Assembly: GCA_951406725.2 (NCBI GenBank)
Contig: OX597838.1
Location: 44,764,001-44,828,000, forward strand
From: Octopus vulgaris
Taxonomy: Eukaryota
Reading direction: 5' to 3'
DNA: 64,000 nucleotides
Part shown: in pieces, positions 3,936 to 16,607 of the stretch
How the letters are laid out: each line of letters begins with the position of its first letter
Position numbering within the stretch: position 1 is the stretch's first letter
Translations under genes and position numbers: made by a program
The notes under the pieces: generated by a model
Seen by the model: the letters and a program-made list of their open reading frames with translations, nothing else
Database searches by the model: none
What the model was told of the DNA's origin: nothing

Positions 3936-4056
3936 ATAAATTTTCAAAATTAATTTCAACAAACTTAGAGTATTTGAACGGAAATACTTTAGCAAAGTGG
4001 TTAAAAAAAAAAAACCTTATAGGCGCAGGAGTGGCTGGGTAAGTAGCTTGCTTACC

Positions 4057-6046
4057 CGCACATGCGCGTTGGTGTTGCTTATTACAGAGAACCGAGGTGG
4101 ACGTGAGTGTGTTGGCTCTTGTCCAATACTGAACTGAAAGAAAACATCAGCATAAGATGGCGGTGGATTTGTTTTCGTTTGAGCTGGGTGTAATTTTTCA
4201 AATAGTAATTGTTTGTTTGTTGGTAAATTTCGCCCAGCTCCGAGGCAATTCTGCCCGCTGTCGGCGGCTGCTGCTTGTTGTTTTGTTGTATTGGGGGGAA
4301 AGGGGTGGGGGTTTATCCTCGCTCGAACTTACTGGATTTTGCCATTGAAACTTGTTGGATTACCATTGAACCTACGAAGTTGGCCAGGAGTACCTGTTGA
4401 CCATTGATGTTTGTTGTGTGAACCGGCTTTTCTTTTCTCTATCCTTCTATGTTTCTTTTTGGAACTGTTTTTGCGTTTCTTTTGGATTTTATTTTTTATT
4501 CATTTTTTGAACTGACTTATTTATTTCTTTTTGGACTTCTTGTTAACTTATTTGGACTTTCCTTCTTCTTGTGAACTGACTTTTAACATAGCAAATGCAA
4601 AAAAGTGCATTAGAGTGGGAGGTGGTCCCATCTAAGTAATGGATTACAAACCATGAGAGAAGAACGGTGGTACGACGTGATGCCATCGCCCTCCTCGACA
4701 AGGGTATCATTAATAAAGAGCTGGCAAAATATTTGCCAGCCAAAAATTATTATGTAACCAGGGGTGTCAAATACGCCACGGCGTGGCTGCTTTTTGACAC
4801 CCCTGAGGAGGCTTGCACTGTGGGAGGCTAGCCCTTGGAAGGGGAGGAGATTTTGTTTGTTCCCACATATCGTGGGAAGAAGGTAATAAAGGCCTGGGTA
4901 AGTGGTCTGCGCCCGGGCACCGAAGCGGGGTGGATTGCAGATGCCATCCGGAGGGGCCTGGGGAATAGTGGGCCCAAGCTCTTAAATATAGAGATAAAGC
5001 CTGCGGTCGACTGGGAGCAAAGGGTACAAAGGCGACTTTGACCCTATGGACTCCAGTGGCAGCGGGTGAAATGACTTTCCTTGACTCTTTGAAAATGGAT
5101 GGCTCAAGGTATCCAGTGATACTTGAGGGTCGCCCCACCCAAGTGTCACTCGTGCCTGGAGTTAGGCCACATTAAGAAGGACTGCCCCGGGGCCGTCCGC
5201 TCTCCCATTGCTGGGAGAAACAGAGGAAGTCGTTGAGGCATCGGCCTCAACGAGAATGAAAAGAAAGGTGAGCAACAATGGTTGCTCACCAACAGAGGCG
5301 CAGGTTGCGGGAGACGAGGAAGACCCCCCCCGCCGAGTGTGTCAGTGGAGGCCCCGACTCCCGCGACCGTAAGAAGGAAAAAGAGGAGGAAGAGAAACGG
5401 GAGACGGTCGGCGGATGTCGCTGTGCCGCCGACCGAACCCGATGCTACTCCAGTTGAAGGTGCACCACTGGAGCGAGAGGTTCTGTCAGTTGGAATTGTA
5501 CCACTGACAGAGCAGGCTGAGGCCCCTTCCCGTGAAGAGGAGTTGAAACCCGTCATTTTCTATCTCGGGGGAGGGCCTGTCGAGTAGTGCTTGGACGGTC
5601 TTCCAGGCCGAGAACAATTGTCTAGGCTGGCCTCCGCAGGTGGCTGCAGAGGTCGTGAGTCAGAAGGAGCTGTTCCAGGTCTTGGTGACCTGTAATAAGG
5701 AAGATTTTACTTTCCTCTTTCCGGGCCCCTACCTGCAGGCGGCGGGTCATTTGCTTGGGGCTCCGATGAGGAGGATTGATCTTATAGATTGTGTGTATAT
5801 TGAACAATTTATTGTATATATTTGTATACTGTTAAGGACTGTTAAGTCCAATAATCGTAAAAACTGTCGTTGCTGCTTGAAAAAAAAGAACAATGTTTTA
5901 GAGAAGCAGAAAATCGGCGGACGTTTTCTGCCTTCTCTCATCAATATCATCCTTGTTTCATCATTCACCTCATCAATGTACATGTCCAGCCTGCAAGCTA
6001 CTCTTTGTAATGCCTTTATGGCAAATCTTAATGAAATAATGAAATA
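4057..6046 (+). mobile_element. ORF1-only non-LTR retroelement (HAL1-like; L1/Tx1-type ORF1), copy 1
   Basis: Bounded by a 16-bp TSD; ~540-nt 5' leader; degenerate ORF1; 3' hairpin; A-rich tail 'aatgaaataatgaaata'; no EN or RT sequence seen. Confidence 0.8.
4595..5779 (+). pseudogene. Disrupted LINE ORF1 (gag-like) with CCHC zinc knuckle
   Basis: Reads ...YYVTRGVKY...EEILFVPTYRGKK...GWIADAIRRG...YPVILEGRP/KCHSCLELGHIKKDCP (CX2CX4HX4C), then basic KKRRKRN; contains stops and frameshifts. Confidence 0.75.
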
Positions 6047-6861
6047 AAGTAGCTTGCTTACCAACCACATGGTTCCGAGTTCCGTCTCACTGTGTGGCAC
6101 CTTGGGCATGTGTCTTCTACTATAACCTCGGGCCGACCAAAGCCTTGTTAAAGGATTTGATAGACGGAAACTGAAAGAAGCTTTCGTATATATGTATACA
6201 TATGTATGTGTGTGTATATGTTTGTGTGTCTGTGTTTGTACCCCCAACATCGCTTGACAACCGATGCTGGTGTGTTTACGTCCCCGTAACTTAGCGGTTC
6301 GGCAAAAAAGACCTATAGAATAAGTACTAGGCTTAGAAAGAATAAGGGATGGAGTCGGTCTGCTCAACTAAAGGTTGTGCTCTTGCATGGCCGCAGTGAA
6401 ATAACTGAAACAAGTAAAATAGTAAAAGAGTATCGAAAATAATGAATTAATAAATGAACGAATGGCTGAATGATGGAATGATAGAATGATAGAATGATAG
6501 AATGATAGAATAGACGGAGATGTCGTTGATTGATGTTATAAGTTAAACATCTAAGTTCAAATAATACAAACTATCAAAATTAGCGAATCAACAAATCGAA
6601 TAGAATGAATGCTGGAATAAAGAATACGTAACCGAGGATTCATAGAACAAGTAAATTAAATGACACTTTACACGCTGGTCATCGCAGAGAAACCTTGGAG
6701 AAAACGATTCATAGCACAACTAAAAATGTATGGAAAAAGAACACCCAAAAATCTACACCACGCATCGGAAACTACGAAGAAAGCCAATAGCTTCGATGGA
6801 GCTGTTATCATATATATATAAGGCGGTGCTCTTTGACTGAAACAAGTAAAAGAATATATAC

Positions 6862-14583: not shown

Positions 14584-16342
14584 TTTTATTGAGTGAAATT
14601 GGCAATGAATTCCTGCCATAGAGGTGACAGCACAAGTTGGGGACAAAAAAATAGAATGGAAAGAGTGAATTAATATAATGAAATATGAAATGAAGCCGTT
14701 CGGCTCCACCTCCGAGCGACTTCATTGAACCTGTTCATACCACCATTATAAAGTAGTTTATAATGTTGTTGTTTTTTATTATTATTAGCGACACCTAATT
14801 ACCACACTTCCGAAGAATGTTTACATTATATTCTTTTAAAATATCCTGAAAACTTACTTGTTTCGGCATTGAACTGGTTTCGAATTTCTTGACCCACCAA
14901 TTATAGTCTTGATTTACCTCATGGTCCTTCACTTCCAACATATATTCAGGGTCTGTCATTACACAGCGAATGTACTCGGGCACCCCCTTCACTCCTGATA
15001 CAGCCACTTTTATAGCATTGTCCCACAAGTCTATCTTTGTCATATAGTTCTTCGTTTCGCCATTGTACAATATAAGGGCGGGGGTGGGGAAATTTGGGGC
15101 TCCTGCGTGCTTGTGTTTGTCTTCATGTCAGGTGGGGCATAATGAGGGCTGGTGTCTGTAGGAGGTGGTTAGGGGTGTGGGTGTGGGTGTGGGTGCGAGT
15201 CGGGTGGGTGTGAGTGGGAATCGGATGGGAGTCGGGTGGGTATGGGATGGGGTTCGTCATTTTCAGTGTGTGCCTCTTTTCTCATTGCTTTCTTTCTCCC
15301 AGCTGTTTCCCATTCATTGTCCATATCCTCTTCTTCGACGGTAGTACTGGTCTTTGTCTGTGGTGCCACTTCACTCTCCCTTTTCACAACCTCCACGGGC
15401 AGTGGAGCACCAGCCACTTTCTGACTCTCTTGTCTCTCCTTAGCTTCCTCAGGTGGTGGAGAACAATCTGCTCTAATCTGGCTTTTTAGGCCACATTTAT
15501 AGTACCCCGAAATCCTTCCATCCACTCTGACTTTCAGTGTTGCGTCTCCGACCGTAATAGTCTCTACCATATTTTCGATATCTTCCACGGCAACCTGTAC
15601 CACCATATCGAGGCTTTGTCCTTGCCAGTTCCTGTGGGATTTTCTAGTGGCCTGGAGGACCACCACCTTCTCCTCCATACCTAACAGTATGGCAGCTACC
15701 AGCCAGGCTACATCCACTTCAGTGGGGTATGTCTTCTACCCTAACACTGGAAGCACATCTCTCACGGTATACAGATAGAAGCACCACTTCATCAGTTCTC
15801 AACTATGTTGCTGAGGGCAGCCTGGCAGTAGCTACCTCCCGAAATCGCTCCTCCACTCTCCCAAATTTTCTTCCTCTGGCAAAGTAGGAAATTCCTGGCC
15901 AGATTAGTTTTAGCGCCCTTTCTACTTGAGCCGTCGTCAGGATTTCAGTCTTCCGAGCTGCTACCGAGTACGTTCTGTAAATTATTTCCTTTAACCCTTC
16001 TTTGGGAGGGGAACACCTTTACATTGTACCACTCCCTTTTAATCATTTCCTTGAATTTGCTTGTATCCCCCAGCCACACGTCTTCCCTTCTTTCTTTGTT
16101 ACCTCTGCATAATTTTTAGACTCCATCCTCTTCAAACACTCCACCATTTCTTCCTCAGATGACACACAGTCTGAAGAAGGATAGTTCAGAAAGTCTGAAG
16201 AAGAAGAATTCAAAACTTCACAACTCCTCGCTCGACGCCTCTCCATTAAACAAGAGGGAAAATGTTGCACCGCCAAAGCAGCAAACAAAAGACGGGTGTT
16301 ACACTCAAAACCAACAATTCGACTGACAAACGCTATACCGGT
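14584..16342 (-). mobile_element. ORF1-only non-LTR retroelement, copy 2 (divergent homologue of 4057-6046)
   Basis: At least 9-bp TSD; AATAAAAAA 3' end; ORF1 remnant; 3' hairpin; no EN or RT seen. Confidence 0.8.
14795..16246 (-). pseudogene. Disrupted LINE ORF1 with degenerate zinc knuckle and a C-terminal extension or second small ORF
   Basis: SYFARGRKF...DEVVLLSVYR...AWLVAAILLG...NWQGQ...LKVRVDGRISGYYKCGLKSQIRADC is collinear with copy 1. Confidence 0.72.
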
Positions 16343-16607
16343 AGCAAGCTTCTTACCACACAGCCACTCTTGCGCTTATATATGTATGTGTATATATATA
16401 TACACACATTTATAAATGCATGTGTGCTAATTTACGTGCATACCTCTCCTTTTATGTAACTATAAATATTCATATGTATATAAGTATATGTGTACATATA
16501 TATATATATACTAATACAATTGTTTGTTTGTATTCCAGCTGCCTTCGTCTTTTGTTTATTTCCGTAAACCTGCCTTCGTCTTTTGTCTATTTTCATAAAG
16601 CTTCCCG

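Follow-up and report, generated by a model that had tools for sequence, protein, structure and literature searches.

Why should two retroelements with little obvious DNA identity be inserted at the same base of the same short interspersed element (SINE)? The question arises from a stretch of 64,000 nucleotides of the Octopus vulgaris genome (hereafter, the window; assembly GCA_951406725.2, contig OX597838.1, forward-strand positions 44,764,001 to 44,828,000), in which two insertions, elements 1 and 2, each split a copy of a SINE family (SINE A) and encode only a first open reading frame (ORF1). A first-pass annotation of the window had taken them for one ORF1-only family. Genome-wide searches were done on the 2.8 Gb assembly (227 contigs), and only the best candidates were scored (129 of 11,774 and 135 of 17,387). 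They showed that ORF1-only families and a complete long interspersed element (LINE) insert at one base of an abundant tRNA-like SINE head. We consider it very probable that elements 1 and 2 are decayed copies of two ORF1-only lineages, likely copied by the endonuclease and reverse transcriptase (RT) of an L1/Tx1-type LINE that uses the same site. The relevant features of the window are:

4020..4040 (+): SINE A head upstream of element 1; 5' part with A-box-like motif, small deletion in this copy; matches the uninterrupted copy at 12322-12490
4041..4056 (+): 5' copy of the element 1 target duplication, 16 bp, T-type site
4057..6046 (+): element 1, a full-length, decayed ORF1-only retroelement; 55 matches scored, many end-to-end at 80-84%
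4588..5779 (+): element 1 ORF1, broken; 47% identity to the intact ORF1 of locus L181, E 8e-53
5993..6002 (+): element 1 tail motif GCAAGCTACT, reverse-complementary to the target, with predicted pairing to read-through target RNA
6003..6046 (+): terminal ~40 nt of element 1, common with the complete LINE: a small GCC/GGC stem, then ATGAAATA; no poly(A)
6047..6190 (+): 3' target copy of element 1 (6047-6062) and remainder of SINE A, including a B-box-like motif
16355..16378 (-): SINE A head upstream of element 2
16340..16354 (-): 5' copy of the element 2 target duplication, A-type site
14587..16339 (-): element 2, an ORF1-only retroelement from a second lineage, full-length and more decayed; 72 scored matches at 69-83% identity
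14795..16147 (-): element 2 ORF1, broken; nearer the complete LINE ORF1 (36-37%, E 2e-26) than the element-1-type ORF1 (28%)
14443..14586 (-): 3' target copy of element 2 (14586-14572) and remaining SINE A
12322..12490 (-): uninterrupted SINE A copy, used as empty-site reference

That both elements occupy the same SINE site, as first annotated, was borne out: SINE heads lie upstream (4020-4040 and 16378-16355) and the SINE bodies continue to 6190 and 14443. The window holds nine SINE A copies, seven of them uninterrupted, and at one SINE per 7 kb a random insertion would fall within 3 nt on the right strand with p ~5e-4. The target-site duplication (TSD) of element 1 is exact and 16 bp long (AAGTAGCTTGCTTACC, at 4041-4056 and 6047-6062), in agreement with the annotation. 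That of element 2, previously given as at least 9 bp, is better read as 15 nt with two differences (AAGAAGCTTGCTACC vs AAAAAGCTTGCTTCC); the two 3' junctions, already recognized as alike, therefore fall on the same base and not 0-3 nt apart. The description of A-rich 3' ends has to be corrected: neither element has a poly(A), and both tails finish in a fixed ATGAAATAAA-type sequence running directly into the target. The protein motifs quoted for a gag-like ORF1 are all present, in frames that are both interrupted by stops and frameshifts, and a Pfam search with three broken window ORF1 pieces returned no match. Little DNA identity was correctly noted, as comparison of the two elements gave no match better than E 0.43, except that the last ~40 nt are similar at the family level. 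No trace of the intact ORF2 of the complete LINE was found in elements 1 and 2 (best E 0.76).

We then sought to evaluate how specific this site is. At least 58,747 exact empty SINE sites and at least 828 exact element/SINE junctions are present genome-wide, with none for a control pattern. Among 169 matches to the element tail, 92 of the 100 listed (at most two mismatches) continue into the SINE site; the pattern covered the tail only, with free positions behind it, and continuation was counted by eye. As its last position excluded C, most A-type sites were dropped. The remaining eight comprise one tail in the SINE body with an indel, one at a site holding a second SINE, and six off target. 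For the element-2 tail, 18/20 matches enter the site and one more is known to lie in the SINE body. Among loci found with the two window elements, 20/21 and 20/23 of those having a recognizable tail run into the target (each count includes the window copy; 9/30 and 7/30 loci have no recognizable tail). The flanks are thus not random, contrary to the outcome that had been named as refuting. Each family keeps to one variant of the site, T-type for that of element 1 and A-type for that of element 2. The A- and B-box-like motifs of the SINE were read by eye, and the 5' end of its head pairs with the 3' end of the head in the fold; ARAGORN found no tRNA gene in the head, and Rfam no tRNA match at E up to 10.

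Could the "target" instead be a part of the element? A composite of SINE head, ORF1 and SINE body might have arisen once or twice and spread as a unit, and nearly all full-length copies indeed hold both SINE halves, with one SINE variant per family and a 5' target copy that is partly element-templated. At least 12 of 58 distinct junction loci, however, are 5'-truncated elements (~25-520 nt) with the SINE head directly upstream (L063, L065, L074, L081, L145, L146, L149, L152, L158, L165, L166 and L170), and L028 is likewise truncated next to a SINE head. These loci were counted only where the head is visible, the automatic "truncated" label being unreliable for divergent subfamilies. Since 5'-truncated copies adjoin SINE heads, the insertions are independent, as the first-pass annotation held. 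Also against a composite, 32 young ORF1-only copies, 97-99.9% identical to each other, all finish at the site in SINE bodies that are 85-98% like the reference, so that near-identical elements are found in both old and young SINE bodies. The site is moreover common to many divergent families and the complete LINE, and off-target copies (L171, L172, L175) carry 11-16 bp duplications of their own sites and no SINE sequence. Truncated copies and the variety of SINE bodies rule out spread as a unit, and we regard a composite origin as extremely improbable.

A full-length relative with an apurinic/apyrimidinic endonuclease-like (APE) domain and RT had been predicted. It was found at the same site. 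Eight of 30 junction loci had a different tail; the element upstream of it is 5.1-5.4 kb long, carries both ORF1 and ORF2 and is bounded by the same SINE halves. Twenty complete elements were fetched: 19 of the 20 finish at the site, and 18 of the 20 are preceded by the SINE head. In several, neither frame is interrupted (ORF1 466 aa, ORF2 1133 aa), and ORF2 frames reach 1150 codons. Pfam matches in ORF2 were Exo_endo_phos (PF03372, E 8e-9), fragments of RVT_1 (PF00078) and zf-RVT (PF13966, E 2e-8); the N-terminal APE, the RT and the C-terminal zinc-binding region are thus all present, in the layout of the L1 group. The best solved relative of ORF2 is human L1 ORF2p (E 1e-66), ahead of R2 (E 1e-19). 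TSDs and 5' truncation, signs of target-primed reverse transcription, were also found. The RT region is 63% identical to an Argonauta hians protein; RT protein comparison returned no named Tx1 sequence, the nearest named proteins being from Argonauta, Paramuricea and Branchiostoma, without clade labels. We therefore describe the complete LINE as L1/Tx1-type, its Tx1 placement resting on architecture (RRM/CCHC-type ORF1, sequence-specific multicopy target) and not on an RT tree. The terminal ~40 nt are common to the complete LINE and the ORF1-only passengers. Because both insertion site and tail are common, the complete LINE is the likely donor of enzymes in trans. At locus L208, it has GTAAGT donor-like motifs at the ORF1 and ORF2 stops (2970-2980 and 6390-6405).

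The ORF1-only forms might be no more than internally deleted or spliced copies of such a complete LINE, dead on arrival. One deletion derivative with ORF2 remnants (L095) and the donor-like motif at the ORF1 stop of the complete family are consistent with this. Splicing out of ORF2 was rejected as a source, the end of ORF1 being joined to the 3' UTR (untranslated region) in 0/86 copies. No ORF2 in sense was found behind ORF1 in the 30 best element-1-type loci or in 12 young copies. The 30 best element-2-type loci were free of it in 29 cases; the remaining one is a tandem with a second element. Locus L249, considered as an autonomous element-2-type parent, is in fact an ORF1-only copy in tandem with a deleted copy of the complete type. 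Passenger subfamilies are bounded by fixed 5' and 3' ends and have a 3' UTR of their own, and their ORF1 is conserved, which sets them apart from ordinary internal deletions, as first proposed. The young subfamily of 97-99.9% identical copies has an open 414-codon ORF1; judged from this identity, it was recently active. The ratio of nonsynonymous to synonymous substitution rates (dN/dS) of ORF1 has a median of 0.20 (range 0.13-0.64, dS 0.1-2.2; 45 pairs of 10 open copies), implying selection on ORF1 in the absence of ORF2; the simplest reason would be that ORF1 acts on the RNA that encodes it. Fixed ends and 3' UTR, the near-identical open subfamily, a dN/dS of 0.20 at dS up to ~2 and an ORF1 only 28-37% like that of the complete family all speak against dead-on-arrival copies, which we consider very improbable.

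What protein is conserved? The ORF1 family model has two units of beta-alpha-beta-beta-alpha-beta topology at residues 11-200 (pLDDT ~66-88; whole-chain mean 55), from which we read the label of RNA recognition motif-like (RRM-like) domains; a CCHC knuckle and a long disordered basic region are also predicted. In Pfam, zf-CCHC matched at E 3e-4, above the cut-off in one of the two ORF1 copies matched, and none of eight ORF1 pieces matched Transposase_22. Sequence comparison with solved structures matched the zinc knuckle alone, and Atlas matches to clusters with two RNA-binding domains (RBD) plus CCHC scored 0.90-0.93. An intact element-1-type ORF1 is 64% identical to an Octopus sinensis protein.

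The claim of a single family did not stand. Element-1-type and element-2-type ORF1s share 28% identity, a tree with outside relatives sets them apart, and an exclusive clade of both types was rejected in a quick tree of 26 rows (p-AU, approximately unbiased test, 0.004); in the same tree a single origin of all ORF1-only rows was not rejected (p-AU 0.07). Elements 1 and 2 thus represent separate ORF1-only lineages, the family of element 2 being the older. Six loci (L008, L009, L011, L012, L017, L029) join an element-1-type body to longer, different 5' UTRs, an exchange of the 5' UTR. In L029, the SINE head of an element-1-type copy immediately follows a sequence that we take to be U6 small nuclear RNA (snRNA)-like (1130-1225). 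No RNA data set was listed as containing the element. Pieces of it, but in no case all of it, occur in contigs bearing four organism labels; a 2-kb contig on the young subfamily, in a run guessed to be RNA, was not counted as evidence.

The following mechanism could account for these insertions. The APE domain would nick the bottom strand at CTT/ACC, with a top-strand nick ~15-16 nt downstream. Passenger RNA would be coated in cis by its own ORF1p, and ORF2p recruited via the common 3' stem. Devoid of poly(A), the RNA would read on into the target, whose first bases would both prime synthesis and fold back to pair with the tail motif. The first bases of the element would imitate the target end, each insertion restoring a site on which stacks can form. 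The A and B boxes would be pushed ~2 kb apart, probably silencing that SINE copy; as it is one of at least 58,747, its loss would cost the host little. Both endonuclease-based targeting and SINE inactivation are proposals, as is mobilization in trans.

Targeting could also be achieved by tethering to RNA polymerase III factors or to chromatin at SINE promoters, as for TRE5-A and Ty3, with no reading of the DNA sequence. A sister ORF1-only family (L266, L268, L291-L309) gives some weight to this idea, as its copies interrupt a second SINE (family B) at the corresponding position, immediately behind the A-box-like motif, although the sequence there is different. The SINE B head was found upstream in 12/14 loci having a 5' end (two of these duplicate others), and the SINE B body resumes at ~nt 13-20 downstream. 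Tethering is nevertheless hard to reconcile with single-base precision within the target, with off-target sites that mostly start AAG and resemble the target motif, and with entry into old, probably silent SINEs. A complete relative with 67% identical ORF2 also lies in (TC)n, which flanks it on both sides (L269, G000:C2:156869978-156877478; one copy seen). We therefore judge tethering unlikely and retain an endonuclease that reads the site.

SINE A flanks are often missing from element 2 relatives of 44-58% identity, and three ORF1 relatives (L260, L263, L267) are preceded by one common repeat, possibly a further target. The SINE B tail resembles the LINE tail. In SINE B tandems the second unit begins with nt 48, and one SINE B copy occupies the SINE A site. 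It is found at L047, L252, L258, L266 and L292-L294 and in the window at 20067-20226, 37451-37610, 40259-40464 and 62763-63112. Judged by its sequence features, SINE B was likely moved by this LINE group.

Analysis of the junctions could give clues regarding a role of the RNA itself. The distal part of the 5' target copy matches the bases of the element, not those of the local SINE, in 7/7 young copies that are informative. The element starts with target-like bases, so that insertion restores a site; 5/32 young copies stand behind the tail of another element and one has another element behind it. Element-1-type and complete elements carry, in their tails, a motif complementary to the target. 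In 50 element-1-type rows, the motif letter was compared with the T/A letter of the site: 38 are complementary, seven unread, five other and none opposite. By site, A-site rows comprise 15 complementary and one unread, and T-site rows 23 complementary, six unread, five other and none of the A-site kind. At least three coupled changes of motif and site were counted on the ORF1 tree (16 near-identical rows of 66 left out), and both motif states recur among complete elements (L067, L068 vs L066, L201). When 13 nt of read-through are included, the motif pairs with the target in the fold, enclosing the small stem. Folding favors the own variant in 79/106 junctions and the swapped variant in 19, with eight ties; five "other" junctions of 111 were left out.

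These data raise the possibility that the RNA helps to choose the site, the stem of tail motif and read-through mimicking the target duplex and exchanging strands with the nicked DNA; specificity would then be partly RNA-encoded and re-tuned upon a change of SINE. Covariation without opposite rows, the coupled changes, their recurrence among complete elements and the folding preference all favor it. However, no clear motif is seen in element-2-type tails (alignment scores of 7-12; pairing close to that of the shuffled control), and these are equally specific, so targeting can do without it. The stem may have no function beyond defining the RNA 3' end or binding the RT. The same covariation would also result if the target letter were copied neutrally into a quasi-palindrome of a master copy, and two of the A-site rows are on long branches. 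RNA-assisted choice is therefore a possibility to which we give a minor share of belief. We rank the endonuclease as the main site determinant and the stem as a feature of the RNA 3' end that may assist. With similar reserve, we suggest that an octopus radiation of Tx1 type is specialized on SINE promoters, with protein-coding passengers that retain an ORF1 of their own and, in the main lineage, a target-mimic RNA stem as a re-programmable layer on APE targeting.

Several points weigh against an ORF1-only system served in trans by a site-specific LINE. Six of the 100 listed tails are truly off target, and the tails of two element-2-like copies (L059, L060) enter another sequence beginning AAGCAGTTCA, L059 being a tandem. 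Mobilization in trans is deduced from the common site and tail. The ORF1 of the complete family is only 28% identical to the element-1 type and ~37% to the element-2 type; the direct parents were thus not found and the historical donor may be an older relative. A rare ORF2-bearing parent may also have escaped among candidates below the best ones scored. Finally, tandems could reflect either sequential insertion or movement of dimers.

The window contains further repeats. Positions 10525-12220 hold a perfect inverted repeat of 651 nt that encloses a second pair of 362 nt, either very recent or an assembly artefact, and a 49-bp satellite (50 register copies, 98-99%) extends from 25053 to beyond 26800. 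Frameshifted RT and GIY-YIG-like frames at 7253-9522 (+) are presumably Penelope-like, and we take 17391-18476 (-) for an RT fragment of another LINE.

Taken together, one genomic parasite appears to use another as landing pad, in a three-tier system of SINE, complete LINE and ORF1-only hitch-hikers with thousands of datable copies, some young enough to assay. It offers natural tests of what makes a passenger retain ORF1 once ORF2 is lost (selection in cis) and of how APE-type endonucleases change target, with two SINEs and (TC)n among close relatives. The compensatory T/A series could serve to test the role of the RNA tail in site choice. For targeted integration, too, site-specific LINEs are under study as tools. 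The system also matters for annotation, as libraries of octopus repeats will be confused by SINEs split in two and by chimeric consensus sequences.

Passengers of target-specific elements that lack long terminal repeats (non-LTR), ORF1-only or deleted, include HeT-A of Drosophila and the SIDE elements of R2 and R1. They belong to other clades and target chromosome ends and 28S rDNA, and SIDEs encode no protein. In crocodilians, as described in the available text of Kojima 2015 (PMC4494074), Tx1-Mar LINEs and their passenger SINEU-3 have a target within a Mariner DNA transposon; SINEU-3 is non-coding and snRNA-derived, with 90% specificity, a 16-bp TSD, tandems, and truncated copies that prove independence. 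The octopus system resembles this one, as far as described there, in combining a Tx1-type LINE and a non-autonomous passenger at a common target inside another transposon, with ~90% specificity, a 16-bp TSD, tandem insertions and truncated copies as proof of independence. It differs in its target, a SINE head instead of Mariner, and in its passengers, which encode a selected ORF1 whereas SINEU-3 is non-coding. The available parts of PMC4494074 and PMC3706591 further describe Tx1L in Tx1D, Keno (U2), Mutsu (5S), Dewa (tRNA-Leu spacer), and Kibi and Koshi (microsatellites), which are likewise sequence-specific APE-type LINEs of multicopy targets. The octopus L269 in (TC)n recalls Kibi; neither a SINE-head target nor ORF1-only passengers are described for these LINEs in those parts. 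An ORF1 with RRM plus CCHC (Type I) is consistent with Tx1 in non-mammalian animals (PMC5203782, available text). Thirteen recently active L1-Tx1 families were reported in O. vulgaris, with no mention of targets in the available main text (PMC13282606), and the accessible parts of PMC11203168 and PMC4758252 add nothing on targets. Our literature search found no description of a SINE-targeting LINE with ORF1-only passengers; Repbase and subscription papers, outside this search, may hold one. Each ingredient has precedent; we found no published account of their combination, of the second SINE target or of the covarying tail motif.

HAL1 (half-L1) derives from mammalian L1, with a Transposase_22-type ORF1, poly(A) and dispersed insertion. 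According to the available text of PMC5753468, these non-autonomous mammalian elements encode ORF1p only and arose more than once. The octopus passengers similarly encode ORF1 only and amplify as families. In contrast to HAL1, their ORF1 is RRM-like with a CCHC knuckle and has no Transposase_22 match, they have no poly(A), and their insertion is site-specific. The octopus passengers work like HAL1 but are not HAL1.

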